Origin: a virus
Taxonomy: Duplodnaviria; Caudoviricetes
Reading direction: 5' to 3' (one strand)
DNA: 59,874 bases
IMG/VR virus record: IMGVR_UViG_3300020045_005987
Location: 1-59,874 of that record
In this document: positions 1 to 14,475 of the stretch, in pieces
Numbering within the stretch: the stretch's first letter is position 1
Layout of the letters: each line of letters opens with the position of its first letter
Translations under genes and position numbers: made by a program
The notes under the pieces: generated by a model
What the model was told of the DNA's origin: nothing
What the model saw: the letters and a program-made list of their open reading frames with translations, nothing else
The model's database searches: none

Positions 1-258
1 ATGCTAAAGTACATGTGTAATGTTTGTGGTTATATGCACCTGACGATGCATGAAGCCGCGCTTTGTCACCCTGACGTGGTAGTAAAGGAGTTTCCAGACT
101 TGCCTGACCGCGCCGCCGAACTACAACGTGCACCCGTCCAGCCCGCCATCGAACTGCTCCGAAAATTGAAAAATGAGACCGGCAATGGTCTTGACTTCAT
201 TTCGGAAGAAACTTGGGAAGAAATCAACGCAGTTCTCAAAACGGCGGGCGGCGGGTGA
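1..258 (+). CDS. Small hypothetical protein with N-terminal CxxC (may be 5'-truncated)
   Basis: ORF at window edge; YMCNVCG motif; 3' half overlaps attC-like inverted repeat. Confidence 0.55.
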   Translation: MLKYMCNVCGYMHLTMHEAALCHPDVVVKEFPDLPDRAAELQRAPVQPAIELLRKLKNETGNGLDFISEETWEEINAVLKTAGGG

Positions 259-274
259 CGCTCGCCCATTCTAC
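115..274. repeat. Degenerate attC-like imperfect inverted repeat
   Basis: GCCGAAC(115)+5 nt+cgtgcacccgtc-ca-gcccgcc pairs with ggcgggc-ggcgggtg-acg (243-260), leaving unpaired extra bases; right core ATTCTAC is degenerate. Confidence 0.5.
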
Positions 275-289
275 GGCTCGGAGGTAAAA

Positions 290-499
290 ATGGATTATGA
301 AAAAATAATAGATGACTGTCTAAAAATTGGCAATGATGGCAGTGCGTGGAACATAAAAAATTGGGATAACGCACGCACATATATTCGAGAAGCTATTTAT
401 GCTTCTCAACGCGACGACGGGCTGTGCGCGAATTGTGGTGAATCTAAAACGTTGGTTGTTTGCAAAGAGTGTCTCAATGAACTCGTCGCCAACCGCTAA
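290..499 (+). CDS. Small Zn-ribbon hypothetical protein
   Basis: GGAGG RBS before ATG 290; CxxC...CxxC. Confidence 0.65.
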   Translation: MDYEKIIDDCLKIGNDGSAWNIKNWDNARTYIREAIYASQRDDGLCANCGESKTLVVCKECLNELVANR

Positions 500-514
500 C
501 GCAAACCGTTGGGC
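404..514. repeat. Partial attC-like site
   Basis: Right arm cgctaacgcaaaccGTTGGGC (GTTRRRY at 508-514); inner inverted repeat gcgacga(411)/tcgtcgc(483); left arm incomplete. Confidence 0.45.
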
Positions 515-542
515 GCTGTCTTGCAAATGACGCAATTTGCCC

Positions 543-571
543 TTGAAATGTAATCGAAACTAGGTTAGTAT
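543..571 (+). promoter_or_regulatory. Sigma70-type promoter
   Basis: TTGAAA-17-TAGTAT preceded by AGGT; matches genome-wide consensus. Confidence 0.7.
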
Positions 572-575
572 ATTT

Positions 576-645
576 ATGGATGACGGTCACCTGTTCAAAG
601 CAGACTGGCCGAGAAGCCCCCGGCTCCTTCGGGGGCTTCGGTTTT
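576..645 (+). ncRNA. Candidate ~70-nt small RNA starting AUGGAUGA
   Basis: Lies between promoter 543-571 and terminator 613-645; no RBS; hairpin cggtca/tggccg. Confidence 0.5.
613..645 (+). terminator. Intrinsic terminator
   Basis: gaagccccc/gggggcttc stem followed by gtttt. Confidence 0.75.
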
Positions 646-650
646 AACCC

Positions 651-678
651 TTGAAATGCCGGGAATTTAATATATAAT
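651..678 (+). promoter_or_regulatory. Sigma70-type promoter
   Basis: TTGAAA-16-TATAAT. Confidence 0.6.
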
Positions 679-722
679 GAATTTTGTAATTGCATCCATC
701 TTATGAAAAGGAGAATAATAAA

Positions 723-1121
723 ATGACATTCGATCCATATGCTCGTCAATCACGTCCACCGGTCAGCAAAGATGACTGGTATCCCAAGCCCTCCAATGGC
801 AAGAAGAATGCCAAAAAGAGGCGGCTGATTCTTTTGCCCAACCGCAAGTATTTCAGGTACAAAGGTACGATGAAGCGGGTTAGGAAACAGCCTGATCTTC
901 CCAAGCAATGTGTTGTGATGCGATATAGACAGGGTGATGGAGAGGGTATTGCAGACCCATGTGGGTGGCTTGACCAGTCCAAGACATTGTTTTCCCCAAC
1001 CATGTCAGGGGATGGTTACGTTTTCCCATCCAAGATTAAGGCCAAAAAAGCAGTTTGGCATACTGTTATGCAATCAGATAAACCCGGTTCTCATGTTGAT
1101 TACAAGATAGTCGAGATATAA
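723..1121 (+). CDS. Basic hypothetical protein
   Basis: AAGGAG at 708 then ATG 723. Confidence 0.75.
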   Translation: MTFDPYARQSRPPVSKDDWYPKPSNGKKNAKKRRLILLPNRKYFRYKGTMKRVRKQPDLPKQCVVMRYRQGDGEGIADPCGWLDQSKTLFSPTMSGDGYVFPSKIKAKKAVWHTVMQSDKPGSHVDYKIVEI

Positions 1122-1130
1122 TTTGGATAT

Positions 1131-1313
1131 AACTGGTGCTGTCCCTGTGCTAACATACAGTGCGTCAATAATAGTGACGTAACAGATGATAAGGTAGTTA
1201 CAATCGCGATGACTGACCAACTTTCACTGTCCACGCAGATGTTGACCCTGATAATTTCGGAGCCTATTAGGAAGGCAGGCAATGGTTAACAGGTTTAACG
1301 CCGTCCGCCAGTT
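1131..1313 (+). ncRNA. Candidate multi-stem structured RNA upstream of replication initiator
   Basis: Closing stem aactggtg/cgccagtt; inner stems acagtg/cactgt, gtca/tgac, gtaac/gttac, gttaa/ttaac; no + strand ORF of 60 aa or more. Confidence 0.45.
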
Positions 1314-1325
1314 ATCTTGAACTTA

Positions 1326-1344
1326 CTGGATCATTCTTATCCAG
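1326..1344. promoter_or_regulatory. Palindrome CTGGAT-N7-ATCCAG, copy 1 of 3
   Basis: Same site with conserved GAAYTTA prefix at 5160 and 44578. Confidence 0.6.
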
Positions 1345-1364
1345 AGACATCCTTAAGGAGAATT

Positions 1365-2078
1365 ATGAGTGTTACAGCAATGGCTTTAGTGTTCAAGTAC
1401 AAGTTTCCAGAGCTAAAAACTGACGATGGGAAGATAGTTCCGGACTCTACATCAAAGTTCGTTATGATTGCTCTTGCCGACCATGCCAGTGATGATGGGG
1501 AGAATGCCTATATTGGTGTGCGTAGGGTTGTTGAGAAGACTCAGTTTTCCACTCAAACGGTTTGCAATGCCTTGAACGCCCTACGCCACAATGGTTTTAT
1601 TACGCTTGTTGGCAAGTCAAAAGTGGACACGAATAACTATACAATAAATTTAGACCGATTCCAGCCACTAGAATCGCAGGATTCTAGCCACCAGAATCCA
1701 AGGACTCCAGCCACTAGAACGAAACCATCATTTAAACCACCAGTTAAACCATTGGCGACAAAACCAACCCAACCCTCCCGGTCCAAACTCTTTATGGATG
1801 CGTTGGAGAAGCACTTTGGGATTGGGTTGAACGTGACCTTCAAGGCGCACAAAGACTTTTTGGTTTGGGCTGTGGACGAGAAACACATCACTCCGGAGCA
1901 GGTGGAATTTGCCTCAAATACTTGGGAGAATGATGAAGATATAAACTGGCATGGCAAACGCAAGCCGTCCATTCAGGCGATCACGGAGAATTGGAAGTTA
2001 TTGATTACTGGATTTGAAAAGCAAGCCTCGTCCACTGGTGGGCGAGATGATTTTATTGACATGAACGGTTTAGAATAA
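1365..2078 (+). CDS. Phage replication initiator, N-terminal HTH (lambda O/DnaD-like)
   Basis: KFVMIALADHASDDGENAY motif; internal iterons; upstream of DnaB; AAGGAG before ATG 1365. Confidence 0.8.
   Translation: MSVTAMALVFKYKFPELKTDDGKIVPDSTSKFVMIALADHASDDGENAYIGVRRVVEKTQFSTQTVCNALNALRHNGFITLVGKSKVDTNNYTINLDRFQPLESQDSSHQNPRTPATRTKPSFKPPVKPLATKPTQPSRSKLFMDALEKHFGIGLNVTFKAHKDFLVWAVDEKHITPEQVEFASNTWENDEDINWHGKRKPSIQAITENWKLLITGFEKQASSTGGRDDFIDMNGLE
1657..1720. repeat. Three 23-bp-period iterons (probable replication origin)
   Basis: gattccagccactagaatcgcag (1657), gattctagccaccagaatccaag (1680), gactccagccactagaac (1703). Confidence 0.75.
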
Positions 2079-2092
2079 ACAAGGAGATAATT

Positions 2093-2244
2093 ATGGGAAA
2101 GAACTCAGCAATTGCTTGGACGAACGATACATTCAATCTTTTTTTATTCGAGCGTTTTTCTTGAAGCAACTTGGTGGTCATCCTGACAAGCGGCACAATA
2201 TGTCTGATTTTCCGGAAGACCTTCGGGTCAGGGAGTACCCATGA
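2093..2244 (+). pseudogene. Internally deleted DUF5131 (phage Gp37/Gp68) remnant
   Basis: RBS+MGKNSAIAWTNDTFN, then out-of-frame AFFLKQLGG...PEDLRVREYP*; these are the typical termini of the family. Confidence 0.75.
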
Positions 2245-2426
2245 AATTAGGACTTAACATAGTTACTGAATGTCCGTTGTGTAAAAGCACAATGATTATT
2301 GCTGATCCGATAAAGCAGGATAGCTTGTCTGGTGAGCATAAAATAGAACAGCGGTGCGGTGATTGCAAACGCATTGTCGTTATGTGGTTGTCCATTGCTG
2401 TTAAAATGTGGGAGGTCAAATCATGA
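2241..2426 (+). CDS. Small Zn-ribbon protein
   Basis: CPLC...CGDC; coupled to neighbours. Confidence 0.6.
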   Translation: MKLGLNIVTECPLCKSTMIIADPIKQDSLSGEHKIEQRCGDCKRIVVMWLSIAVKMWEVKS

Positions 2427-2656
2427 AAGATTGGAAACCTCTTGCCATTCAAGAAGGGCGTATATGCCCTGAGTGCAAACAGCCTGTGGGTAAAAGTAAC
2501 TGGAAGGACATGCAGACTGAAAAGGGTTTGCGTTCGTGTTGGAACTGCCGTTATGCTCATTGGCAGATTCCCATTAATAATGAGCATTCCGGCAATGTTG
2601 AATCTGATAATGCGGATCGAGAAGCGTTTGCATATATTCGGGAGGGTTGTTTATGA
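2423..2656 (+). CDS. Small Zn-finger protein
   Basis: GGAGG RBS; CPEC...CWNC. Confidence 0.65.
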   Translation: MKDWKPLAIQEGRICPECKQPVGKSNWKDMQTEKGLRSCWNCRYAHWQIPINNEHSGNVESDNADREAFAYIREGCL

Positions 2657-2847
2657 ATTGCTATATCTGCCACCAACTCATTGAAGATTCTAGTAAAGCC
2701 CATGATGTTCATGCCAAGAATTGTCCGGCCAGCAACGTGTATGCCGATGCGCCTCTTGGACAGTCTCAGCTTGTGTTGTGCGGTTGCGATTTCAAGGCTC
2801 ATGCAGAGTGTTGCCCAGCTTGTTTATTCCTGCGAAACCTCACATAA
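2653..2847 (+). CDS. Small Cys-rich protein
   Basis: GGAGG RBS; multiple Cys/His. Confidence 0.6.
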   Translation: MNCYICHQLIEDSSKAHDVHAKNCPASNVYADAPLGQSQLVLCGCDFKAHAECCPACLFLRNLT

Positions 2848-2862
2848 TTATTGGATCCAGAC

Positions 2863-3105
2863 ATGATTGGCAAATTTGATTATTCTAGAAAACTGATGGC
2901 TCTACAAGGTTGGAGAAAATTGTTGGTTTATTGGTTGTTGACTATAAACTATGAAATGGAGATTTCCGACTTGATGATAGCTGATGTGGCTGAGTGCCGG
3001 TTGGATAAAGTCCCAACCCTCATGGAGGGTGTTATCAAGATTGCCAAACATGGAGCGATTGAAAGAATCCCCGATTGGGGATACATATACAAAACTGCAC
3101 CTTGA
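2863..3105 (+). CDS. Hypothetical protein
   Basis: ORF in gene-dense run. Confidence 0.45.
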   Translation: MIGKFDYSRKLMALQGWRKLLVYWLLTINYEMEISDLMIADVAECRLDKVPTLMEGVIKIAKHGAIERIPDWGYIYKTAP

Positions 3106-3130
3106 AATGCAGAGATTAATAACTTAGAAT
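3102..3130 (+). promoter_or_regulatory. Sigma70-type promoter of helicase
   Basis: TTGAAA-17-TAGAAT. Confidence 0.7.
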
Positions 3131-3163
3131 GAGTTATCATCCATTACCTAAAGGAGAATAATA

Positions 3164-4654
3164 ATGTCGGTTCCAGACCCTAATGATTCACAAGCACCCT
3201 CACAAGTGCCGCAGAGTACAGAAGCCGAGGAAGGTTTGCTCGGTTGTGTTTTGATTAATCCAGACGCGTATTATGAAGTCTGTGATTTGATCGTTTCTCT
3301 TGATTTCTATAGTAAAAAACGGCAATGGGTATGGGATGCTTTCGTCCTGCTTGTTGACGCAAAGACCCCGATAGATTTGTTGACTGTTTCAGAGGAACTT
3401 GATCGGGTTGGGCATTTGGATCAAATAGGAGGTTTTGCATATCTTAACGCCCTTATAAATCAATGCCCATCTTCGCTGAATGCTGTGGCTTATGCGCGAA
3501 TTATCGAGGGGTGTTCCATCAGACGCAAGATGATACAGAAAGCCAACAAGATTGCTTCGATTGCATATGATGAAAGCAAGTTGATCGAGGATGCCCTGTC
3601 TCAGTATGATGCAGTTTTCTCTGAACAGCAGTTGACATCATCTGCGACCGATGATACGGAAGATTCTGATGATGCATCCTTGGCTTTGATAGAAAGGATT
3701 ACATCGAAAACGCCTACTGGTGTCTTGTCCTACTTTCCAGAGTTTGACAAATATGATGCGCTTGGCGGATTTCCCATGGGTGGCACATTGTTGATGGGTG
3801 ATTCCAGTTTTGGAAAATCCGCAGTAGCCTTGCAGATTTGTGAACAGAATGCCCTTGCAGGAAATCAAGCCCTTTATATCGGACTTGAATCCACCAACGC
3901 CCAAATGGTAATTAGGCGCGTAGCTGGTGCCTCTGGTGTGGTTGGCGCGTCCAAGAAACTTAGAACTGCCTCGCTCACCGCACAGGAGGAAGAAGGTTTG
4001 CTCAAAGAGATACGCAATAATTATCAGGGAAAGTACAAAGGCAAGTTGAAGTTAAATTCTCGTGCCACTACTATTCGTCAGATAGAGAATGCCATTCGCA
4101 AACATAAGCCGAAGATATGTGTCATTGATCAAATATCACAGGTTACTGATATGCCGTCTACCAACCCGACCATGAACCTGCTCATGAATTTTGCTAGACT
4201 CAAGGCTCTTGGCAATAAATACAACTGCGCTGTGATCGTGGTGCATGCCATTTCCCCGGAAGAATCGCGCGTGTTTTTCAAGAAGAACCAAAAGTCCAGT
4301 GCTGGTAAAGTCCAAAAGAATGGTATCCCGAATATCAATGCAATTCCTTGGGCAAGCCAGATGAAATTCTTGGCGGATGTTATTTTGTTTCTGGTTCCGG
4401 AAGTCAATCAGAAGTTATCGGGTGTTGTCAAATATGAGATCATTATTTGGGTGATGAAGGATCGTGATGGAACTCGATTCACTGATTGCTGGTTTAATTA
4501 CGATTTAGTAATGCAGTGGTTTGAATCTAAGCCTGCTCCGTATAAATCATCGGCTCAAAGGCCATCTAGTTCACAAAGTCAAGTTCCAATGGTTGATTAT
4601 TCAATTGAAGATGAGCCCGAGTTTGACCAACTTGATTTTGACACTGTGAAATAA
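3164..4654 (+). CDS. dnaB: DnaB-like replicative helicase
   Basis: N-terminal PQSTEAEEGLLG...PIDLLTV; Walker A GDSSFGKS; Walker B ICVIDQ; KDRDG. Confidence 0.9.
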   Translation: MSVPDPNDSQAPSQVPQSTEAEEGLLGCVLINPDAYYEVCDLIVSLDFYSKKRQWVWDAFVLLVDAKTPIDLLTVSEELDRVGHLDQIGGFAYLNALINQCPSSLNAVAYARIIEGCSIRRKMIQKANKIASIAYDESKLIEDALSQYDAVFSEQQLTSSATDDTEDSDDASLALIERITSKTPTGVLSYFPEFDKYDALGGFPMGGTLLMGDSSFGKSAVALQICEQNALAGNQALYIGLESTNAQMVIRRVAGASGVVGASKKLRTASLTAQEEEGLLKEIRNNYQGKYKGKLKLNSRATTIRQIENAIRKHKPKICVIDQISQVTDMPSTNPTMNLLMNFARLKALGNKYNCAVIVVHAISPEESRVFFKKNQKSSAGKVQKNGIPNINAIPWASQMKFLADVILFLVPEVNQKLSGVVKYEIIIWVMKDRDGTRFTDCWFNYDLVMQWFESKPAPYKSSAQRPSSSQSQVPMVDYSIEDEPEFDQLDFDTVK

Positions 4655-4667
4655 TTGGAGAAAGTTA

Positions 4668-5144
4668 ATGAAATTGATAACGCTCACCCAAGGTCAATTC
4701 GCCAAAGTTGATGATGAAGATTTTGATGAACAGAATTTGTTTACTTGGCAAGCACGATGGAATCCTCAAACCAAGAGTTACTATGCACTTAGAACGGATT
4801 ATTCCCAAGGTGGGAAGAAATCTATTTTGATGCATCGTGAAATTATGAAAACTCCAAAAGGCATGATTTGTGATCATAGAAATCATGACACATTGTTTAA
4901 TTGCAAAGAAAATTTAAGGAATGTTACTAATTCTCAAAATGCAATGAATAGAAATAAAGCAAGCAATAATACAAGTGGATACAAGGGCGTGAGTAAGCAT
5001 AAGAACAAATGGGATGCACAGATAAAGAAAGATGGTAGATTGATGTTTTTGAAATCTTGCGCCACTGCCGAGGAAGCTGCTCGTGTTTATGATGACAAGG
5101 CTAAAGAATTATTTGGAGAATTTGCTCTTCTTAATTTCGGTTAA
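4668..5144 (+). CDS. HNH-AP2 homing endonuclease
   Basis: ITLTQG, MHREI, DHRNH..L.N..ENLR, NTSGYKGV, AA..YD; AT-rich. Confidence 0.9.
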   Translation: MKLITLTQGQFAKVDDEDFDEQNLFTWQARWNPQTKSYYALRTDYSQGGKKSILMHREIMKTPKGMICDHRNHDTLFNCKENLRNVTNSQNAMNRNKASNNTSGYKGVSKHKNKWDAQIKKDGRLMFLKSCATAEEAARVYDDKAKELFGEFALLNFG

Positions 5145-5159
5145 TCTTCCTTGAATTTA

Positions 5160-5178
5160 CTGGATCATTTCAATCCAG
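5160..5178. promoter_or_regulatory. Palindrome CTGGAT-N7-ATCCAG, copy 2
   Basis: 15 bp upstream of -35 at 5194. Confidence 0.6.
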
Positions 5179-5193
5179 TAACACCCTTGACCC

Positions 5194-5222
5194 TTGAAAT
5201 GTAATGCACAATAGGCTAGAAT
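5194..5222 (+). promoter_or_regulatory. Sigma70-type promoter
   Basis: TTGAAA-17-TAGAAT with AGGC. Confidence 0.75.
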
Positions 5223-5255
5223 ATATTCAATCATCCAATTATCAAAGGAGAAAAC

Positions 5256-6206
5256 ATGCAACAGCAAAATGAAAAACAAGGCAATGGTTGGGACTTGATA
5301 AAATCAGCAATGGATTATCTTCCATTGCTTGATCTGTCCACAGAATCCCTGCTCAAAGATTATGTGAATGTAAATTATGGTGATTTTTTGACCCGTTTCC
5401 TCTTGCGTATGGCTTTGGAGGATGGAAAGAATCTTGCCGGGATTGCCGAACTATCTTCCGTTTCTGTTTTAGGTGGTTTTGGTCGAAAGCTGAAAAAAGT
5501 TATTAAGGGAATAGCCAATGAACTCCACGAAAAAATTCTTGATCCCAAGAATGATGTTCTTGGTGTATTACATCCATCCTGTCATTTTTTGCATCTTGTT
5601 TCCGAGATGGATTTAGTGAAAATGCACATGGTTGCTTTATATCCATTCAGGGCACATGCAGTCAGGATGAATGAGTCTTTGTTTCAAGAGTGTGAAGATT
5701 TGGTGCTACTACCTTGCTATGAAAGTGCCACCTTGGATCATTTGTTTAGATTTGCAAAGATAAGCCTTCACGCGCATGATGGTTATGGTGGACAGGTTGG
5801 CAAGGCTTATGTAAGTTTATGGGAGGAATATCAGAATGTTTACAATGCTTCTGAATTAGAAATCAGTGCCGAGTATGCTGATTTTGCCGACGAGATTGGC
5901 AATATTATCCGTGAGAGCGACCAGTCCTTGTTCAACAAGCAAGATCCAATCTGGCTTTACAGGGCGTTGAATTTCTTTCACGATGACCCTAATATGTTGT
6001 ATGAATTTATAACCAAAAAAAGAAAGCAGTTCGACCTCATGCCGAGGTCTGGTCATTTTATGAGTGCCCTTGATTTGTTCCTGCATTCAAATACTGGAAT
6101 GCTTGAAACAGTTTATGGAGATCGTGTTGTCAAGTTGCTTGATTATCATATATCGTTATGTATACCGTATCAGGAGCTAAAGAAAGCCCATGAAGAAACA
6201 AATTGA
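5256..6206 (+). CDS. Hypothetical protein (316 aa)
   Basis: Promoter, TCATCCA and AAGGAG upstream. Confidence 0.8.
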   Translation: MQQQNEKQGNGWDLIKSAMDYLPLLDLSTESLLKDYVNVNYGDFLTRFLLRMALEDGKNLAGIAELSSVSVLGGFGRKLKKVIKGIANELHEKILDPKNDVLGVLHPSCHFLHLVSEMDLVKMHMVALYPFRAHAVRMNESLFQECEDLVLLPCYESATLDHLFRFAKISLHAHDGYGGQVGKAYVSLWEEYQNVYNASELEISAEYADFADEIGNIIRESDQSLFNKQDPIWLYRALNFFHDDPNMLYEFITKKRKQFDLMPRSGHFMSALDLFLHSNTGMLETVYGDRVVKLLDYHISLCIPYQELKKAHEETN

Positions 6207-7209
6207 TTTAGGCAGTTTCAGTATGCCGGTTGAGGACTATGTTTCAATGCTTTATAAATCCTTAGAAAAGCAGAGATTCCACCAAGCACAGCAACTTGTT
6301 GAAAAGAAATCTGGTGTAAAACCTAACAAGTTTGTTGATAAAACAATTCCCACTTTTATGCAAGCTGAGATAGATGGTCTTGGTAGTGAATTGCTTATTC
6401 TCCAACAGGAGAATGTCAAAATAAAGCAGGACAATACCTCCCTCCGTAATGAGAATCTTCGGTTGAATACTGTAATTGAAAAACTCAGGAAACAGCTTGC
6501 TCCGCAATATGAAAGTATGAAGAATCTGTTTGAAGAAATTGGGAGTGGACCCGCTCAATTGGATCATTCCAAATGGGACAAATGGATCGACAAGGTCAAG
6601 GGTAAGCAGAAGGATATGATCCTTGCTCTGCTTGAACATGGTGGAAGAATGAACCGCAAGCAACTTGGATTGTTGGTTGGCGTTGTTGCTTACGACAAGG
6701 GAGGAACGTTCAACACTTATGTTTCAGAGTTGACAACCCTTCGCCTTGTTGCGCGTGAAGGTGATGATATTGTTTTACAGGAGATCATTAAAATGGAACA
6801 TACAATGCAAGAGGATTTTGAACATTTCATGTCTTACAGTGGCCTTTGGCGTGAAACTGACGAAGTGAAAGCTAAGTTACTTCTCGCGTTTGATGCCGCG
6901 TGGACGCCTACTACCTATGGTGCGCGAGTCATTACTCAGGAACGTATGCGCCAAATTTCTGCTGAGGGATGGACACCCAAGCATGATGATGAACATAAGA
7001 TGCTCCAACTCGGAAGGGCGGCATTATGTTATTTGAAGTTTGGTTTATTACCAGCATATCCACAACTTGTAAATCCGCCAGATCGTTTATGGCCTTGGGA
7101 TGTTGAGTTTTGGAAACCATCGCAAGATCGAATTAAAAACCTTATAAAAGCTGGTGCTTTAATAGCCGCTGAAATTGACAGATTACAGAGAGAGAAAGAT
7201 GCCAAATAA
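6190..7209 (+). CDS. Composite ORF: coiled-coil/wHTH region fused to conserved phage domain (ERxRQ..EGWTPxHDD..WPW)
   Basis: Internal CAGGAG+ATG at 6793; short N-terminal stub. Confidence 0.7.
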   Translation: MKKQIDLGSFSMPVEDYVSMLYKSLEKQRFHQAQQLVEKKSGVKPNKFVDKTIPTFMQAEIDGLGSELLILQQENVKIKQDNTSLRNENLRLNTVIEKLRKQLAPQYESMKNLFEEIGSGPAQLDHSKWDKWIDKVKGKQKDMILALLEHGGRMNRKQLGLLVGVVAYDKGGTFNTYVSELTTLRLVAREGDDIVLQEIIKMEHTMQEDFEHFMSYSGLWRETDEVKAKLLLAFDAAWTPTTYGARVITQERMRQISAEGWTPKHDDEHKMLQLGRAALCYLKFGLLPAYPQLVNPPDRLWPWDVEFWKPSQDRIKNLIKAGALIAAEIDRLQREKDAK

Positions 7210-7330
7210 AAAGGAATATCCATTAGACAAAACCCTCGTCAACTATGGTTTGTCACGTATTGAATTCAAGGCCAGATTGGATGGGCAACACAATGTATGC
7301 CGTTATGCAAAGCTAAACTCTATGTTATAA
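7199..7330 (+). pseudogene. Truncated EndoVII-like gene N-terminus
   Basis: YGLSRIEF..RLDGQHNVC then frameshifted LCK; the next gene carries the same motif (YGITEDQW...QNGICPIC). Confidence 0.55.
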
Positions 7331-7350
7331 TTTAGTTAGGAGAATATAAC

Positions 7351-7956
7351 ATGAGTAAAAAGCGACCGTGTAGAGGATGTGGTAAGGAAAAGGATGCATC
7401 AGGAGCTAGGAGTCATTGGTGTTCTGAATGTAAAGAAAATCCATTGAATAGAATTTTAATAATTAACAGTATGTGCAAAGTTCATGATGTACACAAAACT
7501 GGTTTCCTGATTCAGAGCCATAAAAGCTCGGAAAAGTTTAAGTGTAAGATGTGTGAAAAAGAACGAAGAAAAAGAATGAGTGAAGATCCAGTTCAGCGAG
7601 AGAATTTTAAAAACTCTCAAAGAAAATATAGATTGTATATTAAGTATGGAATAACAGAAGATCAATGGGATGAGATTTACACATTACAAAACGGAATTTG
7701 TCCAATTTGTAAAAAGAATTTGCGTTTTAGGAGAGATTTGGTTGGTAAAATGCCAGCAGTAGATCATGACCACAGGACTGGTGTAATAAGAGGATTGGTT
7801 TGTCAATATCCATGTAACTATGTTTTAGGGTATTTACATGACAATTCTGATATGTTTTTATCTTGCTCTAAATATCTCAATAGTCCACCAACAAAAGGAA
7901 AAATAAATTTTGTTGTACCAGAAACTAGTATAGCTAAAAAATATAGACAAAAGTAA
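7351..7956 (+). CDS. Recombination endonuclease VII-like (HNH) nuclease
   Basis: CPIC...AVDHDHRTGVIRGLVC..CN..LG; AT-rich; TGTTATAAT upstream. Confidence 0.9.
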   Translation: MSKKRPCRGCGKEKDASGARSHWCSECKENPLNRILIINSMCKVHDVHKTGFLIQSHKSSEKFKCKMCEKERRKRMSEDPVQRENFKNSQRKYRLYIKYGITEDQWDEIYTLQNGICPICKKNLRFRRDLVGKMPAVDHDHRTGVIRGLVCQYPCNYVLGYLHDNSDMFLSCSKYLNSPPTKGKINFVVPETSIAKKYRQK

Positions 7957-8001
7957 AGTCCTATCTTCAAGAATTTGAAAGCCACAGACAAGGAGAAAGC
8001 C

Positions 8002-8802
8002 GTGACTGAAAACTATTTAACTGTTGATTTGTCCCTGCCGCAATCCAGTGAAATCAGGTCAATGTTCAAGGCCATAGAGCGTGTTCTGCCCGAGGACTTG
8101 ATAGCTGAATTCGATGGTCTTGTTCAGGCAGAGGACATGATGCAATGGTCTTATGGTGACAAGACCAATCAAATTTGGTCTGCTGTATCTGCTAAGAAGC
8201 TAAAGAATAAGAAGGGCAAGCCATACACATTCTTGGACATTTGCTTTTTTGTCAGTGTCAGGTTCTTGCGCCAGACCCGTTCTTTCAACACGGTCAAGAC
8301 ATGGGCTTTGGTTTGCAGGAGATATTCTCCTGTTGTTCGGCAACTCTACAATTATGAAGACATTTGGTTTGCCCATTTTGCTTATGCCGCTAAAAAGATA
8401 TTTGACGTGGATGATACAAATGGTAAAAAGAAATGGCAGAACGTGTTGAGTTTTTCGTACAATCAATCGCTCCGGCAGGGGTACACTGTTAGTGTTCAAC
8501 AGCTTGAATCCTATTTCGAGGGCAGGAAAAAGAACAAGTCAAACTTTGCCCCAACTGTTCATGACTTTGCGCTTGCTGATATTGATCTGTCACCCATTGA
8601 TGTTAATCAGGTGGCTACGATTCAATCTGATGCAGATACTCTGGAAGGGGAGTTTGGAGAAGCCATTCACAGGCTCGGCGGCATAGTCACCAGAATTTCT
8701 GCGAAATATCCCATAATTGGCGGATCAGTAAATCAGGCTTATGCTGTTTTGTCTAATGCTTTACGCGTGATCGTCAGCCCCAAGGAAGAAGAAATTGTAT
8801 AA
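8002..8802 (+). CDS. Hypothetical protein
   Basis: AAGGAG then GTG 8002. Confidence 0.75.
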   Translation: MTENYLTVDLSLPQSSEIRSMFKAIERVLPEDLIAEFDGLVQAEDMMQWSYGDKTNQIWSAVSAKKLKNKKGKPYTFLDICFFVSVRFLRQTRSFNTVKTWALVCRRYSPVVRQLYNYEDIWFAHFAYAAKKIFDVDDTNGKKKWQNVLSFSYNQSLRQGYTVSVQQLESYFEGRKKNKSNFAPTVHDFALADIDLSPIDVNQVATIQSDADTLEGEFGEAIHRLGGIVTRISAKYPIIGGSVNQAYAVLSNALRVIVSPKEEEIV

Positions 8803-8811
8803 GTAAATTCC

Positions 8812-8841
8812 TTGACGAACAAGTAAGTTACATATTATAAT
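8812..8841 (+). promoter_or_regulatory. Sigma70-type promoter
   Basis: TTGACG-18-TATAAT. Confidence 0.65.
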
Positions 8842-8859
8842 CCTTGATAGGAGAACTAA

Positions 8860-9276
8860 ATGCCCAAGAAAATGACTATAGCTGAACTGAAAGCCCTTTA
8901 TCATCCCCTAGCTGACCCCATTCCGGGAGATCCAAACCTGAGAACCAGCGCAACTGCCAAAGGGCATATACATAAAGTTAGTGCTGTTTGGCTCCCACCC
9001 GTTGGCGGTATGACACCTGCTGAGTATAGATACAAGTCAAAAACTCGTACCAAGAAGGCCACAAAGGTTGTCAAAAAATCACCGCCTTATCGTTTATTGG
9101 GCAATAAGAAAATTGCATGTTTGAGTGGGCGTGGTTGTGGCAATATTGTTTCCGAAAAGATTGGCACTTGTCGTGATTGTCGCCGCGCAGGAGTGTTGAA
9201 AGTCAAACGTCTTGCTTACAAGCAATCGAGAATTTCGAAGATGAAAAAGGAGAACAAGAAAAATGGCAAAAAATAA
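8860..9276 (+). CDS. Basic Cys-containing hypothetical protein
   Basis: AGGAG RBS; C-x4-C...CxxC. Confidence 0.7.
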   Translation: MPKKMTIAELKALYHPLADPIPGDPNLRTSATAKGHIHKVSAVWLPPVGGMTPAEYRYKSKTRTKKATKVVKKSPPYRLLGNKKIACLSGRGCGNIVSEKIGTCRDCRRAGVLKVKRLAYKQSRISKMKKENKKNGKK

Positions 9277-9517
9277 ACTTGACCAGCAAGCCTCGATCAC
9301 GTTTCAGGCTCCGCTATCCCGCAAAGAAGCCCTTGAACATCTGGCATTTCAGCTTGGACTTCGTCGTCTGGTGGACAGCAAGGAAACTGGTAATGTGTCT
9401 GCTGTTGTGAATCTGTTCATTGAATTTGCTTTCGAGTTCAAAGAGCAGTTTGCGGAATGGGTCAAAGCCCGCGCCACAAAAGCGATGAATAGTGAGGTGG
9501 TTTATGAAACCCATTAG
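9263..9517 (+). CDS. Small possible ribbon-helix-helix DNA-binding protein
   Basis: AAGGAG RBS; strand-helix-helix pattern (SITFQ...NVSAVV). Confidence 0.55.
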   Translation: MAKNKLDQQASITFQAPLSRKEALEHLAFQLGLRRLVDSKETGNVSAVVNLFIEFAFEFKEQFAEWVKARATKAMNSEVVYETH

Positions 9518-9758
9518 ATTTAGTCTTTGGTTTGAACCTAGTTACATGTGGGTAGGTGTGTCTTGGAAGGCCATATGGATGTGGGATTATATCAATTATG
9601 AAAAGCCTAAGAAAGTCTATATGATTTCTTTGCGTATTTTTATTACGGTTATTCCGACTCTGCCGCTCAGTATTGTTATTGATATACAGCGAGTAAAGTC
9701 GTTGCTCATAAACTTAAAAAAGGAGAGTGACCAGAGAATAGATAATAAAATTGTGTGA
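9504..9758 (+). CDS. Hypothetical protein
   Basis: GAGGTG RBS; overlaps upstream stop. Confidence 0.55.
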   Translation: MKPIRFSLWFEPSYMWVGVSWKAIWMWDYINYEKPKKVYMISLRIFITVIPTLPLSIVIDIQRVKSLLINLKKESDQRIDNKIV

Positions 9759-9818
9759 ATCAAATGTGTTGATAAATTGTGAATAATCCTCTAACAAACA
9801 TAGAAAAGGAAAAATAAA

Positions 9819-10706
9819 ATGTCTAACAAATACACAGATCAAACTTTGCAAGGTGACGCCTATGAAGTGTTGCCCGTTCCATCCTTCAACAAGATTTTTT
9901 GGCGAAGCGGTGACTCTCGTTTATCCCCATTGCTCGGCACAGATCCCGGCCAGTACCTCGGTGAATTTCGTTCCATGACCAAGATGCCGGCGACCAAAGA
10001 CCGTGAGGAAATCATCCTGCCGGTCCTGCCGTGGAAGATTGTCACTCGCAAGGCGGGGCGTGAATCGTACACCCGTTACTCTGCAACTGAAATGTCCTTC
10101 CGGCCAATTCGTGCCCGGCTACGCTATGTCCTGTTTCAGCGTGATAGTCAGGGTATTAAGGCCAAAGATGCCAATGGGCGGGATGTAATCCTGTCCATTA
10201 CCAAGACGTTCGTCAAGGGAAGTGGATTTACTCCGCAGAAGGAAGTTTTTGGCATGGTGTTTGATGATGCCGGAGTTTTCTCCACTTATGCCCTGCTGTC
10301 CATTGATGCATGGTCGTCCTTTATTTCGTATGATCGCGCTGTGAAAGAGTACGAAAAAATCGCCGTGCCTGATGGTCAGCTTGTTGTCTATCGCATTGGT
10401 ACGCGCGGCATTACGTTGAACACTGGTGAGGTTGTACCTAAGACAAGGACTTTTGGCGGTGGTGAAAGTGTTGACATTGAAGCCCTTGATCTTGATAATC
10501 CGTATTTCATGGATATCACTGATGACTTTGACAATATTTGGAATGCGGCTGAGAAATGGTCATCCTGCAAGAAGTGGAATGCCGAAACTGCCAAAGCCAA
10601 AGAAGCGCCAGTTACTTCCATCGGTGAAGTTGATATGAATACCGTCCTTGAAGTGTCGGATAACTTTCCTCATGGAACTCCCGGCGACGATGAATATCCT
10701 GCGTAA
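9819..10706 (+). CDS. Putative ssDNA-binding/annealing protein
   Basis: Beta-rich 295 aa with acidic tail GDDEYPA; function inferred. Confidence 0.5.
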   Translation: MSNKYTDQTLQGDAYEVLPVPSFNKIFWRSGDSRLSPLLGTDPGQYLGEFRSMTKMPATKDREEIILPVLPWKIVTRKAGRESYTRYSATEMSFRPIRARLRYVLFQRDSQGIKAKDANGRDVILSITKTFVKGSGFTPQKEVFGMVFDDAGVFSTYALLSIDAWSSFISYDRAVKEYEKIAVPDGQLVVYRIGTRGITLNTGEVVPKTRTFGGGESVDIEALDLDNPYFMDITDDFDNIWNAAEKWSSCKKWNAETAKAKEAPVTSIGEVDMNTVLEVSDNFPHGTPGDDEYPA

Positions 10707-10716
10707 TAAATAGTTA

Positions 10717-10850
10717 AATGACCTACTGCTTTGTGCGAGAATCAGAAGCACCTAGGCAACCCTGAGCGTAAACCGAAGGTTGAAAGCAGAAAGACGAATG
10801 CAAAAGTAAACCGCTGGTAGGTTCCATCTTCGGCAAAGTGGTAGGTCGTT
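10717..10850 (+). ncRNA. Structured intergenic/leader RNA
   Basis: 17-bp closing stem aatgacctactgctttg/caaagtggtaggtcgtt with three G-U pairs; inner hairpin aacc-gaa-ggtt. Confidence 0.55.
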
Positions 10851-10874
10851 ATCCATCCAAGTAAGGAGATAGAC

Positions 10875-12095
10875 ATGAGTGACATTTCAGTAAAGTTAAG
10901 TTTTGATTATTCCCCGGATACGAATTTTAGTCCTCCGCCATTTCCGTATGTGCCGAATGGAGTAAATGTTCTTGACATTAATAATGTTGATGCCATGCAG
11001 GATTACTTCAAGCAGTGTGGATGGTTTAGTATTTGGGGGAAGGAAATTGAGGGTATTGATGCATCCAAACCCGGCGGCTCCGCCTTTATTGGTTCTGATG
11101 ATAGTTGGTTGTATATGCGTAAGTCTGTAGAGTGGTTACCTGTTGGACAAATAGTTCCGCAACCTATTGTAAAATCCATCGAAGCCAAAGCCAACCTAAA
11201 GAAAGGTTCAGGAGCGAATAGCCCGATAGTAATCAGCATGAATTTGGATGGAGCTAGTTTTGCGTTCCTGCTTCACAAGATTGGATCTGGCACAAATGTC
11301 ATGGGTTTGTTGGGTTCTAATTTATTTCAATCTGAGTTAGGTTTGAAAAATGCCCGTATCCCATTTCCTGCGAACGCAACGTGGATCACGCATCCTCAGT
11401 ACCAAAAAGGAAGGAAAGTAAGTTCTTTGGCAATGGCGTTTAATACAGTCAATGTCAAGATAGATATTCAAACTAATCAGAATCTTGTAATCGGATGGAT
11501 GGCTATGCAGAATCCTTCGGGTGGTTCGATAGTTGGACCACCATCTGGTGGAGCTGTTCACAATTCCATGCCCATTGATGAAATGAGACGGTCTTATCCC
11601 AACACTGCCATTGCAAAACTTGTTGAATGGGGAGTTGCGAATAACTTTATTATGTTTGATCCTCCTATGGTCAGTACTCGCAATTATAAGAAACGCTATT
11701 CTCAGCAACAGCCAAATCTTTTTGACAGTGACAATATTGAGAGTTCAACGCTTTCGGCGGCTCTTGATACTTTTGTTCCTCCGCAAGAATTGGAACTTCC
11801 AGACTTATCCAGAGACGTGAAGTGGAAGTTGAATATTCGCGGGGTTGTCATCCTTGAAAAAGATGGTCAATTGTTATGGCCTCATGAAGTATTTGATCTG
11901 CACCAGATGGTTCAAGACAGCGAATCAATGGGTAGGCAGATTGCAGTTTCCTCCAATGAATACCAAAAGAGTGAGATTGAAGGATACAAGGATAATCTTG
12001 ACAAACAAATCGCCAAAGTACGTGCCTTGTTTGAATATCAGGCTCAGGTTGGCGAGAGTATTTCTTTACAGTCCAGAATTTTTGGAGAGGTGTGA
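10875..12095 (+). CDS. Hypothetical protein (406 aa)
   Basis: CATCCA+AAGGAG leader; no motif recognised. Confidence 0.85.
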   Translation: MSDISVKLSFDYSPDTNFSPPPFPYVPNGVNVLDINNVDAMQDYFKQCGWFSIWGKEIEGIDASKPGGSAFIGSDDSWLYMRKSVEWLPVGQIVPQPIVKSIEAKANLKKGSGANSPIVISMNLDGASFAFLLHKIGSGTNVMGLLGSNLFQSELGLKNARIPFPANATWITHPQYQKGRKVSSLAMAFNTVNVKIDIQTNQNLVIGWMAMQNPSGGSIVGPPSGGAVHNSMPIDEMRRSYPNTAIAKLVEWGVANNFIMFDPPMVSTRNYKKRYSQQQPNLFDSDNIESSTLSAALDTFVPPQELELPDLSRDVKWKLNIRGVVILEKDGQLLWPHEVFDLHQMVQDSESMGRQIAVSSNEYQKSEIEGYKDNLDKQIAKVRALFEYQAQVGESISLQSRIFGEV

Positions 12096-12096
12096 T

Positions 12097-12228
12097 ATGA
12101 AGTATGTTGGAATGTTTTGGCGTGGATTGTGGTTTCCTGTTCTGCGGCTATTTATTTTGTTAACGGCATTTGTAATCATGGTTTCTTATGGACCGGCACG
12201 TGCTATTGAGTGGCTGGATCAGCAATAA
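12097..12228 (+). CDS. Small membrane protein
   Basis: GAGGTG RBS; hydrophobic stretch. Confidence 0.55.
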   Translation: MKYVGMFWRGLWFPVLRLFILLTAFVIMVSYGPARAIEWLDQQ

Positions 12229-12229
12229 T

Positions 12230-12243
12230 TGGGAAGGTTCACA
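12230..12243. promoter_or_regulatory. Operator-like palindrome TGKGAA-N2-YTCMCA, copy 1
   Basis: tgggaaggttcaca; also at 16456 and 24125, each upstream of a promoter. Confidence 0.5.
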
Positions 12244-12279
12244 ATTTTAGCGCACCATTATTCACTTACTTGAATACCC

Positions 12280-12308
12280 TTGACAAATAGCATCGTATCG
12301 GATAGACT
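12280..12308 (+). promoter_or_regulatory. Sigma70-type promoter of MoxR-VWA operon
   Basis: TTGACA-17-TAGACT. Confidence 0.8.
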
Positions 12309-12348
12309 TAGTATTGTTGAATTCAAATCATCCATTAAAGGAGACAAT

Positions 12349-12444
12349 ATGAATAAAAAGCTTGTCATTTTGGTAGCGAATGCAATAATATGGGGATGGA
12401 TTGCATTTGGAATTTGGTTTTTAGTTGCAAGGGTTTTTAGTTAA
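12349..12444 (+). CDS. 31-aa single-pass membrane peptide
   Basis: TCATCCA+AAAGGAG; MNKKLVILVANAIIWGWIAFGIWFLVARVFS. Confidence 0.6.
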   Translation: MNKKLVILVANAIIWGWIAFGIWFLVARVFS

Positions 12445-12472
12445 TCATCCAACTTAAAAGGAGAAATAAGTT

Positions 12473-14470
12473 ATGCCAGCTAAATCAAAAGCAGTTGTAC
12501 AATCTGTCGGGCGCACATTCTCACAGCCTGACGAACTCCGGAACATTCTCGAACCTGTCATGCAAGCGGCAATGCTCGCGTGGCAGAATGTTTTGGTTGT
12601 GTCCAAGCCCGGATGTATTGCTGGTGACGCGATTGTCACCGTAAACCGCGCAGGCAACGGGCGTTCGCTTCCCATCAGTGAGCTTGTTGCTCGGCTGAAT
12701 GGCGGGAAGGTAACCACGAGAGGATGGGACTTATCCATCCCGACTTATATATCCATCGCAAAAGACGGGCTTGTTCGTTCTGTAAAGTTGAAGAATGCTT
12801 GGTGTTCAGGGACTAAAAAGACTTATACGTTGACCACAGCCTCGGGCCGTGAAATCCGCGCCACATCTGACCATCGTTTTATGCGGGAAGATGGTTCGTG
12901 GGCTGAACTAATTGACCTTAAATGGGGAGAGCCAATTTGTGTCAACATTGGCAAGTCTCAAAATGGGAATTCCAAAAAGAATGTCTACTTGGAGATTGTT
13001 ACCAAGTATCACCCGCACCAGAAAAGGAAAAGCAAATTGCTTGATGGGTCATACAGTCATGATGTTTTGGCGCACCGTTTGGCTTATGAAGCAAACATGA
13101 ACGGACTCACCTTCAATGATTATATTTACATTTTGAATCATGTTCCTGCTCAAGCGATGCAACTCCAATACCTACCGGAAGACATCCTTGTTCACCATAT
13201 TGATGAAAACATCAAAAACAATGACCCCGCGAATCTGCAAGCTGTAACCCTAGCCGAGCATCGGGCTATTCACTCTGCTACTGATTTTAAATATGTACTC
13301 GATCAAGTCGGTGTTGAGAAGGTCGAGAGATTGGATTACTTTGGTGAAGAACCGACATATGATATTGAGGTTGATGACGAGAGCCACAACTTCATAGCGA
13401 ATGGCTTTGTTGTTCACAACTGTGGCAAGTCCGAGATTTTGATGGCAATGGGCAAACAGGTATTTGGTCCCGATGTGTTCAATGGTCAGGATCGGACTTT
13501 CGTCCTGCCTTGCACTCCATCCACATTGCCCCCCGACATTGTAGGATATGCCAATCCTGTGTACAGTATTGATCCACAGGCTGAGGAAAAAGGCATTCCC
13601 TACTGGATCGTGAAAGGCACACCGGTTGATGAAGAAATCCTGTATTGCGTTCTTGAAGAAGCAACTCGTATTGGCGACCTCGGTGGTGATACGCTCGTTC
13701 ATGCCATGCATAACATCAGCAAGTTTCATCGTCCGCTTTACATTGCCAATGCAAACTGGTTGATTCCCACCCCTCGCAATGAGGCTTTGCGTGACCGGTT
13801 CAGCTTTACGATTTTCTATCAGCCGTCAGTGGTTGATATTGATGCGCTCGTTGCAAAGCCAACCATTAGTTCATGGCGTTTTGATCTTCCCACATTCGAA
13901 CAAATCGAACAGGTTCAGGCATGGACACGCGATTACATTCAAGCCCCGTTTGATTATCGTTGCAACTCGGTCATCATTGACCTGCTCAAGAATGTGCAAC
14001 GGGTATGTGAAGGCACAAGTTTCGAGTTCAACAACCGGCGCGTTTTCCAACTGCGCTCGATGTTGTATGCGATGGGTTGCCATGCCGAGGGCTCGAATGA
14101 CTTCACAGACATTCCCCGCATTGCCTTTGACGCTCTTGCCTATTCCTATCCAGTAGTGGACTTTCACGAGTCCAGCCAATGGCGCAAGATCATCATGAGT
14201 TTGGTTGATCGTGTCGAAACGGAAATTGCCGAGTTCAAGAGCAATGCTTATGCGGTTTGGAAAGGCATTTTTGCAGAGCATGCGGATCGTAGTGGAAACA
14301 TCAGTGCATCGCAACGGGACGCATTGAATCGCCAACTTGCCCAAACGTGGACCAGTTACGAGAAATCCTTGAAGACCGATTTCCCGAATGACAAGCGCGT
14401 TGCACAAGCCCTTGGTGAAATGTACTCGATCTACCGTGAATTGGTTTTGGGGAAAAACCCTTTGCGTTAG
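12473..14470 (+). CDS. MoxR/RavA-like AAA+ ATPase with intein
   Basis: Walker A SKPG|CGKS split by intein; PSTLPPDIVG; Walker B CVLEE; ALRDRF; adjacent VWA gene. Confidence 0.88.
   Translation: MPAKSKAVVQSVGRTFSQPDELRNILEPVMQAAMLAWQNVLVVSKPGCIAGDAIVTVNRAGNGRSLPISELVARLNGGKVTTRGWDLSIPTYISIAKDGLVRSVKLKNAWCSGTKKTYTLTTASGREIRATSDHRFMREDGSWAELIDLKWGEPICVNIGKSQNGNSKKNVYLEIVTKYHPHQKRKSKLLDGSYSHDVLAHRLAYEANMNGLTFNDYIYILNHVPAQAMQLQYLPEDILVHHIDENIKNNDPANLQAVTLAEHRAIHSATDFKYVLDQVGVEKVERLDYFGEEPTYDIEVDDESHNFIANGFVVHNCGKSEILMAMGKQVFGPDVFNGQDRTFVLPCTPSTLPPDIVGYANPVYSIDPQAEEKGIPYWIVKGTPVDEEILYCVLEEATRIGDLGGDTLVHAMHNISKFHRPLYIANANWLIPTPRNEALRDRFSFTIFYQPSVVDIDALVAKPTISSWRFDLPTFEQIEQVQAWTRDYIQAPFDYRCNSVIIDLLKNVQRVCEGTSFEFNNRRVFQLRSMLYAMGCHAEGSNDFTDIPRIAFDALAYSYPVVDFHESSQWRKIIMSLVDRVETEIAEFKSNAYAVWKGIFAEHADRSGNISASQRDALNRQLAQTWTSYEKSLKTDFPNDKRVAQALGEMYSIYRELVLGKNPLR
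12614..13420 (+). mobile_element. 269-aa intein with HNH endonuclease
   Basis: Starts CIAGD; block B ATSDHRF; ends HNFIANGFVVHN/C; HNH VHHIDENIKNNDPANL. Confidence 0.92.
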
Positions 14471-14475
14471 TAACT

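Follow-up and report, generated by a model that had tools for sequence, protein, structure and literature searches.

The 59,874-base linear DNA analysed here (hereafter the window) is the entire IMG/VR virus record IMGVR_UViG_3300020045_005987 (Duplodnaviria; Caudoviricetes), with a completeness of 60% by CheckV, and its positions 543-645 are probably the gene of a non-coding phage small RNA (sRNA) that acts in trans by pairing with boxes in the leaders of the phage's own genes. The 5' end of the predicted RNA is complementary to a box, (T)CATCCA, that stands beside the Shine-Dalgarno sequence (SD) of a class of early and middle genes, and the loop of its terminator is complementary to the SD itself. 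That the pairing would repress translation is stated with less assurance than the pairing. A seed-pairing sRNA had been proposed at this place in an initial annotation, made from the letters of the window and a list of its open reading frames (ORFs), and comparative sequence evidence now supports it: the unit and the boxes are present in all four records that cover the position, namely the window, two further IMG/VR contigs (locus L003 in contig G001 and locus L004 in contig G002) and one metagenomic contig (L006).

The promoter of the unit (TTGAAA-17-TAGTAT, 543-571) agrees with the consensus at 9 of 12 positions; it is present as the initial annotation had it, but it is a good promoter rather than the consensus promoter claimed there. 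An exact 10-mer, CCTTGAAATG, is found at 541, 649, 3100 and 5192, that is, in this promoter and in three others of the window, and by BLAST the stretch 540-573 and the promoter at 5191-5224 share 82% identity. Judged by these matches, the sRNA promoter is of the phage's own type, the same as that of the early promoters. The 72-nucleotide (nt) RNA 576-647 is predicted to leave its first 8 nt free and to form a hairpin at 584-611 and a terminator at 613-639, with a minimum free energy of -33.1 kcal/mol and a z-score of -3.25, and none of 200 shuffled sequences was as stable. The remaining anatomy given in the initial annotation stands: TGGATGA is at the predicted 5' end of the RNA (577-583), where the minus strand reads TCATCCA, a hairpin and then an intrinsic terminator (613-645) follow, the unit has no ribosome-binding site (RBS), and the next gene, 723, has a promoter of its own at 651. 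Comparison of the four homologues revealed neither an SD nor a conserved ORF in the unit, and the peptides that they could encode (23, 7, more than 25 and 20 amino acids (aa)) are unrelated. An ORF on the minus strand over the unit (474-749, 91 aa) was set aside, as it is not conserved in L006. Searches of the whole window with Rfam families, C4 and sar included, gave no match at gathering thresholds; the permissive hits on 520-720 reached at best 19.4 bits or less against cut-offs of 41-100, and the sar covariance model gave a chance-level hit of 13.8 bits on the opposite strand only.

The complement of the seed is enriched in the window and concentrated in front of genes. TCATCCA occurs 27 times on the two strands, against 14.2 +/- 3.3 expected, a number reached by none of 100 shuffles, and seven of its nine plus-strand copies lie just upstream of an SD. 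For the core hexamer CATCCA, AGGAG stands 2-10 nt past 10 of the 22 plus-strand copies, with a start codon after it, as against 0 of the 48 copies on the minus strand. When leader windows were drawn for ORFs of at least 30 aa, nine of the 22 plus-strand copies fell within these windows, which cover 1.3% of the sequence (binomial p 4.8e-12), and CATCCA was the commonest of the 4096 hexamers there. The reversed word ACCTAC had no copy in leader windows (0/7 in the window, 0/5 in G001 and 0/12 in G002). All ten leader boxes of the window lie within its first 25 kb, in front of early or middle genes, and the base before CATCCA is T in 7/10, which matches A583 of the RNA. About five further leaders carry one-base variants of the box that should still be able to pair, some of them through G-U. 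Hence the placing of TCATCCA beside the SD of early and middle genes in the initial annotation was correct, down to the variant TCATCTA at 22999 before gene 23021, and the class of boxes is real, but the 'many genes' amount to ten exact and about five variant boxes among about 75 genes. By inspection, five of the ten boxes of the window have a recognisable promoter and the other five do not; those at 3138, 5232 and 21395 start 7-9 nt past the -10 element, i.e., at about +1 to +3 of the mRNA.

Other roles for the box and the seed were considered and dropped. Pairing of the box with the tail of 16S rRNA would not readily suit a box that lies upstream of the SD at variable spacing, and a -35-like or activator box does not suit the inconsistent spacing to -10-like words. 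Likewise rejected was the idea that, on read-through transcripts, the seed pairs in cis with the box at 693, the downstream leaders of L003 and L006 having no exact box.

The relatives of the window were found through its helicase, homologues of which in metagenomes show 47-66% identity. The helicase alignment A1 (19 homologues), used for the profile searches, identified two contigs in IMG/VR, the 48.9-kb G001 with L003 and the complete, 62.8-kb G002 with L004, and seven short contigs in metagenomes (L005-L011); it had no match in GTDB genomes. The same two IMG/VR contigs were returned by the alignments A2 and A6, scans of IMG/VR with the single proteins of gene 723 and the helicase gave no relatives, and megablast of positions 1-3000 against isolate phages gave no match. 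With G001 and G002 the window shares only an early module, roughly 690-20271. No counterpart of its TerL, its portal or two further late proteins is present in G001 or G002, and hence the early module is, as far as this comparison goes, a mobile unit among mosaic phages, separate from the structural genes.

Synteny defined the position of the unit in these relatives, which was taken as the region ahead of the gene 723 homologue or of the first early gene. In each of the four covering records (window, L006, L003 and L004) it is occupied by the same series of promoter, TGGATG, hairpin and terminator, placed after a gene for a LexA-type winged helix-turn-helix (wHTH) protein, with or without a small gene, and before the first early gene, and in each a new promoter stands directly past the terminator. 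TGGATG starts 5 nt past the -10 element in the window and L004 and 6 nt past it in L006 and L003, which places the seed at the predicted transcript start in every homologue. The free 5' end, the hairpin and the terminator are predicted in all four folds (z -3.25, -2.71, -5.35 and -6.95), the first hairpin being unrelated in sequence in L003 and L004; the U tails of the terminators, a long one being part of an Hfq-binding module, measure four in the window, L006 and L003 and seven in L004. Besides the promoter hexamers, TGGATG and CTCCT are the only invariant blocks, and outside these two the homologues align poorly. In the terminator stem, 7 of 10 pairs are altered on both sides with the pairing kept. 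Such a pattern is what would be expected if only the pairing of the stems mattered, with the single-stranded parts recognised by their sequence.

The boxes recur in the relatives as well. For example, 3 of the 20 plus-strand copies of CATCCA in G001 (p 0.002) and 4 of the 31 in G002 (p 2.7e-4) lie in leader windows, the word being the top leader hexamer in G002 and not in G001. Boxes before an SD are also present in L005 (two) and in L006, L007 and L009 (one each), with none on the opposite strand. The helicase leader has the box in L006 and L007 and the variant CCATCCG in L008, whose leaders also include CCATCCT, and no CATCCA leader box was found in L010 and L011. None of the four covering records combines CATCCA leaders with a missing RNA, a combination that the initial annotation had named as telling against the sRNA, and among the other relatives no record with boxes demonstrably lacks the RNA, L005, L007 and L009 being too short to cover the position. 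A search of IMG/VR with the pattern CCTTGAAATG-N24-30-TGGATG returned at least 118 stretches, and none among the matches listed has the signature of -10 element, CTCCT and T-run. Similarly, the pattern TCATCCA-N1-9-AAGGAGAATA returned 95 stretches, with the RNA only in the known G002 contig; the stretch L204, which has two boxes and no RNA within 9.8 kb of sequence, was taken as chance. Other features of these leaders were noted in passing. In L010 (7183 bases, 45% helicase identity), 5/8 leaders have (G/C)AAT directly before AGGAGA, a different extended consensus, and in L003 (G001) the sRNA terminator and the first early gene are separated by a noncoding leader of about 230 nt (8300-8520 of L003), which has its own promoter, long inverted repeats and no box.

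The CUCCU anti-SD loop is a second invariant block of the RNA and is absent from the initial annotation. CTCCT is unpaired and invariant in all four homologues; it forms the terminator loop in the window (CUCCU), L006 (CCUCCUC) and L003 (CCUCCUA), and in L004 it belongs to an unpaired part, CUCCUAG, of a large terminator. Among 24 terminator-like hairpins in the three long records, CTCC is in the loop only in the two captured sRNA terminators, and the remaining 22 (10 in the window, 5 in G001 and 7 in G002) have none. The base next to the loop motif varies together with the base next to the SD. In the window, where the loop reads CUCCU-U, A precedes AGGAG in 9/9 box genes as against 23/40 others (p 0.019), and in G001 and G002, where it reads CUCCU-A, T precedes AGGAG in 6/8 box genes as against 18/71 others (p 0.008). 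The difference in this base between the box genes of the window and those of the relatives has a p of 0.0023. In G002, five of six box sites are TAGGAGAA, the exact complement of the 8 nt around CUCCU in its RNA, although its predicted fold pairs the first 2 of these nt, the two U ahead of the motif. Compensatory changes, which the initial annotation had looked to between seed and targets, are suggested at the flank of the loop, with L006 as an exception, and are missing at the flank of the seed, where the matching G was found at 1/9 sites of G001 and G002.

The mechanism suggested by these observations would run as follows. The RNA would be transcribed alongside the early genes, from the same type of promoter, and ended at its own intrinsic terminator. 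Its UGGAUG(A) 5' end would pair with (U)CAUCCA and its CUCCU(U) loop with AAGGAGA, 2-10 nt apart, and if both contacts are made on one mRNA they would cover the RBS, so that translation would be repressed. The contacts would form a clamp, its two short helices perhaps stacked along the mRNA strand. As the RNA builds up, some 10-15 early and middle genes of replication and DNA metabolism would be shut off and the box-less late structural genes would escape, in keeping with the early-to-late switch suggested in the initial annotation. A wider and clearly more tentative picture can be drawn, in which the RNA would be a two-pronged 'RBS clamp', reading the class-defining box with its 5' end and the SD with its terminator loop. 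It would then be an RNA counterpart of T4 RegA giving a timed shut-off of the whole early/replication module, and the module, with RNA and boxes, would move between phages with unrelated structural genes. This picture is possible and goes well past what is considered probable here.

Several points weigh against this reading of the unit. The pairing is short (seed, 6-8 bp; loop, 5-8 bp), and no RNA chaperone gene was recognised in protein-family scans of window proteins. The relatives have few boxes (3 in G001, 4-6 in G002). The seed lies 5' of the loop motif in the RNA and the box lies 5' of the SD in the mRNA, and thus no single continuous duplex could form and a folded clamp would be needed. 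By the usual rule (7th base past the -10 element), the transcription start site (TSS) falls on the first G in the window and L004 and on the U in L006 and L003, and the seed may be GGAUG(A) only, if the TSS clips the first U; on the other side, the last base of the CATCCN leader boxes of the window is A in 10/12, which argues that the U of UGGAUG is transcribed. The flank of the seed does not covary with its targets: the base after UGGAUG is A in the window and L006 and C in L003 and L004, and the base before the box at the G001 and G002 sites is G in only 1/9, T in 5/9 and A or C in 3/9. At the loop, L006 has C in the flank and its single box gene has A. Duplex energies were counted at three thresholds for the 9-nt seed against 74 leaders of the window, 61 of G001 and 66 of G002. 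The counts are not significant against random 9-mers, of which 43, 25 and 21 of 300 reached the count in the window, at least 98/300 in G001 and at least 102/300 in G002, because the shared SD lets any C/U-rich, anti-SD-like 9-mer match every leader. With shuffled seeds, 7/500 reached the observed 17/74 leaders, a modest result. Finally, the box is invariant though the helicases are only about 50% identical, and a conserved host factor or protein that reads it would fit this equally well.

The last point leads to a reading in which CAUCCA is recognised in RNA by a protein or host factor, for example a T4 RegA-like repressor, a nuclease or a ribosomal component, and the sRNA is a box-masking antagonist or unrelated. 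The invariance of the box across phages with 45-66% helicase identity, the lack of covariation at the seed flank and the possible weakness of so short a pairing would all suit it. It is nevertheless distinctly unlikely, since it needs two coincidences in all four phages, a complement of the box at the 5' end and a complement of the SD in the loop, and the latter with covariation of its flank; the scan of 40 window proteins, 10 of which were run against two libraries, recognised no RNA-binding regulator, which is weak evidence in the same direction. The same RNA and the same pairing could also have another outcome than repression, the early mRNAs being stabilised or activated through protection of their 5' ends from decay, or being marked for cleavage. 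This is unlikely without being far-fetched. It draws on 3/5 promoter-proximal boxes of the window (3138, 5232 and 21395), which lie so close to the mRNA start, and on the common promoter type of RNA and targets, which would fit a co-factor role. A second conserved element that is anti-SD and covaries with the SD flank is hard to square with activation of translation, however, and the 5/10 boxes without a recognisable promoter would be internal to transcripts.

It is very unlikely that the unit has no function in trans and is a terminated leader or attenuator of the type of lambda PR'-tR' 6S, or the terminator of the upstream operon beside tandem promoters, with TGGATG incidental. In its favour, no terminator separates the unit from the upstream gene (stop at 499), whose transcripts would therefore likewise stop at 613-645, and the short U run (4 U) makes some read-through into gene 723 likely. 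Yet a second promoter past the terminator in all four homologues would make antitermination unnecessary, the unit precedes early and replication genes and not late ones, and its terminator is not the sole gate to the downstream operon. Moreover, the conservation sits in two single-stranded motifs while the stems drift, and a plain terminator needs neither a conserved loop nor a conserved +1 sequence. The nearness of a regulator gene brings up a DNA operator near +1, CATCCA/TGGATG, for the adjacent LexA-type wHTH protein, its closeness to the SD resulting from short leaders and the copy at the sRNA promoter being inverted. In all four records the wHTH gene is just upstream of the unit, and 5/10 boxes of the window and most of those of the relatives lie 7-20 nt past a -10 element. 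This is highly improbable in view of the uniform orientation of the leader boxes (19/19, with 10 in the window, 3 in G001 and 6 in G002, and none on the other strand in any locus), the five window boxes without promoter and the lack of dyad symmetry in the 6-bp site, unlike the operator of a helix-turn-helix dimer; the anti-SD loop and its covariation would also be left unexplained. Hardly credible at all is a leaderless micro-peptide starting at the NTG directly before GATG. A possible start codon is indeed there in all four homologues (ATG, GTG, TTG and ATG), but three of the four bases suffice for one, which gives 4/4 by chance with a probability of about 0.32. GTG and TTG are poor leaderless starts, and the resulting peptides (23, 7, more than 25 and 20 aa long) share only Met-Asp, one of them crossing the terminator.

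Table 1. Features of the small-RNA unit, leader boxes and genes assigned by protein-family scan, in positions of the window
Feature	Position	Strand	Details
sRNA promoter	540-571	+	CCCTTGAAATG; -35 TTGAAA 543-548, 17-nt spacer, -10 TAGTAT 566-571
Predicted non-coding RNA, about 66-70 nt	576-645	+	TSS predicted at 576-579; 3' end in U run 642-645
5' seed UGGAUGA, unpaired	577-583	+	reverse complement of TCATCCA; 5 nt past -10
Hairpin 1	584-611	+	predicted fold
Intrinsic terminator stem-loop	613-639	+	11-bp stem; followed by GGUUUU 640-645
Terminator loop CUCCU, anti-SD-like	624-628	+	complement of AGGAG
Separate promoter of gene 723-1121	651-678	+	TTGAAA-16-TATAAT, 11/12
CATCCA box	693-698	+	leader of gene 723 (132 aa, no assigned function)
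TCATCCA box	3137-3143	+	leader of DnaB-type helicase gene 3164
TCATCCA box	5231-5237	+	leader of gene 5256
CATCCA box	10854-10859	+	leader of gene 10875
TCATCCA box	12328-12334	+	leader of small ORF 12349
TCATCCA box	12445-12451	+	leader of gene 12473 (intein-bearing protein)
TCATCCA box	14540-14546	+	leader of gene 14562 (VWA-domain protein)
TCATCCA box	16581-16587	+	leader of gene 16605
CATCCA box	21395-21400	+	leader of gene 21412
TCATCCA box	24853-24859	+	followed by SD and 12-codon ORF 24882
Variant box TCATCTA	22999-23005	+	leader of methyltransferase gene 23021
Variant TATCCA		+	before genes 1365, 18638 and 44616
Variant CATCCC		+	before gene 24263
Replication initiator gene	1365	+	protein-family scan
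DnaB-type helicase gene	3164	+	protein-family scan
Endonuclease VII gene	7351	+	protein-family scan
Intein-bearing protein gene	12473-14470	+	protein-family scan
VWA-domain protein gene	14562	+	protein-family scan
DNA methyltransferase gene	23021	+	protein-family scan

Some of the individual boxes have surroundings of their own. The 12-codon ORF 24882 overlaps the start of a 71-aa ORF with a TTG start (24908), the box and the strong SD standing before the former only, and a leader peptide, a frameshifted gene and an assembly error are all possible explanations of this region (24854-24920). The leader of the late gene 44616 (44590-44616) holds CTGGATGATTTTTATCCAG, where a copy of the seed word is predicted to pair in cis, as a local hairpin, with the variant box just upstream of the SD. 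Similarly, in G002 the box in the leader of a 73-aa gene (reverse-complement 46060) lies in the loop of a small hairpin (GGGTG CATCCA ACCC), 7 nt past a TAGAAT -10 element.

A second small unit was noted in L004, directly after the sRNA terminator (4119-4213), with the extended -10 element TGGTATAAT. Its predicted RNA (4132-4213) is 82 nt long and has a very stable fold (z -6.06), and the 9-nt loop of its terminator, CCAUCCAAA, displays the leader box CAUCCA. The RNA could be a target mimic or sponge for the UGGAUG RNA, which would make the pair an RNA-only timer circuit. A third structured piece follows at 4214-4345.

The known systems nearest to the predicted RNA differ from it in part. Enterobacterial sRNAs of the RybB and OmrA/B type have a 5'-terminal seed and a Rho-independent terminator, and the RNA described here is like them in its seed at the extreme 5' end, its internal hairpin, its terminator and the reading of many targets through one short seed; unlike it, these sRNAs and SdsR serve cellular stress regulons. 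The c4 RNA is processed from the same transcript as its target and is not known to be made from a promoter of its own, unlike the free-standing promoter-terminator unit with 5' seed and terminator loop found here. T4 RegA is a protein with loosely defined recognition sites, whereas the repressor proposed here would be an RNA and would read a defined 6-7-nt box together with the SD. The likeness to RegA would lie in one early phage product that shuts off many early mRNAs at their initiation regions, as given in the available part of the source (PMC3014915). Likewise, c4 of phages P1 and P7 is, in the available text of a review on phage sRNAs, a phage small RNA with exposed loops that uses more than one short element to block translation around the RBS (PMC12197685); its action in that text is on one target, ant, in an immunity operon, unlike the roughly ten dispersed targets here that share a box.

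The same review text presents c4 and sar as phage sRNAs that pair around the RBS through loop sequences, and its phage sRNAs include VpdS, PreS, 24B_1, the PAK_P4 antisense RNAs, sar, OOP, aQ, IsrK, AgvB, AsxR and c4 (PMC12197685). In the portion available, the base-pairing RNAs described for phages are cis-antisense, have single immunity targets or act mainly on host genes, and none is described as reading a box common to a leader class of its own phage (PMC12197685). VpdS of VP882, which affects phage and host mRNAs (PMC12197685), and PreS/LPR1 of lambda resemble the predicted RNA as base-pairing sRNAs of phages that act in trans during lytic growth (PMC12197685; bioRxiv 10.1101/2024.10.31.621285). 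According to the available text, they are Hfq-dependent RNAs of enterobacterial or vibrio phages, and they differ from it in having host genes (dnaN in the case of PreS) or a mixed set as their key targets; neither is described there as reading a box common to a class of the phage's own leaders. Lambda 6S (PR'-tR') and OOP are likewise short phage transcripts with a constitutive-looking promoter and a nearby terminator; in the text available, OOP is described as antisense in cis to cII and 6S as the late operon's start cut short by termination (PMC12197685), whereas a separate downstream promoter follows the unit of the window, and the unit is antisense to no gene and complements dispersed sites. 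SdsR has a dual 5'/3' action, and terminator loops of sRNAs are needed for regulation, in the available part of that report (PMC11979758). The contribution of the terminator loop is thus a likeness, but the loop of SdsR acts 'likely without base-pairing' according to the same part (PMC11979758), whereas the loop here complements the SD and covaries with its flank. Full-text literature searches for the CATCCA leader box, the matching seed, a pre-SD motif of phage early genes and a phage sRNA with an anti-SD terminator loop gave nothing relevant. Going by its predicted features, the sRNA is c4- and RegA-like in logic and a 5'-seed sRNA in architecture, and it is of no curated family by sequence.

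As for the surroundings of the unit, all long ORFs of the window are on the plus strand, the genes number roughly 75 at a GC content of 44%, and no tRNA was found in the window. Replication and DNA-metabolism genes fill the first 25 kb or so and are followed by terminase, portal and tail genes. By tblastn, the protein of 12473-14470 and TerL had distant matches only, and TerL is closest (44-46%) to actinophage terminases, although the GC content of the window is 44%. An HNH-endonuclease intein (Pfam Intein_splicing, HNH_3) is part of the 665-aa protein of 12473-14470. The G001 and G002 homologues of this protein align over the flanking 350 aa or so only and appear to be intein-free, and the helicase homologue P0006 (851 aa) also has intein or LAGLIDADG-type domains.

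In L006, the sRNA is directly preceded by a wHTH gene (LexA_DNA_bind) together with a small gene. The window has homologues of the two at its far end, at 59080-59451 and, with 83% identity, at 59475-59696, and hence circular permutation or terminal redundancy of the window record is probable, with two additional small genes (1-258 and 290-499) inserted before its sRNA. Just upstream of the sRNA promoter, a 20-nt element, GCTAACGCAAACCGTTGGGC, covers the stop codon of the small gene and a short inverted repeat (495-514). It is found four times near the ends of G001 (reverse-complement at about 485-510, 815-840, 48578-48603 and 48819-48844) and in a diverged form in L011 (about 3640-3665). The element may mark the 3' ends of a small paralogous gene family, and in G001 it is not tied to the sRNA.

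Base-pairing RNAs of phages are already known, and if the reading given here holds, what is new in this one is that it would read a box common to a leader class of its own phage and would carry an anti-SD terminator loop. The biology of the phage would then include control of its own temporal gene class, on the scale of a regulon, by one short RNA, with the specificity written as a 6-7-nt box beside the SD. It would also be a natural case of cooperative two-site recognition, through a 5' seed and a terminator loop, whose parts would be compact enough for an orthogonal translational switch, and such circuits would be recognisable from metagenomic sequence alone.

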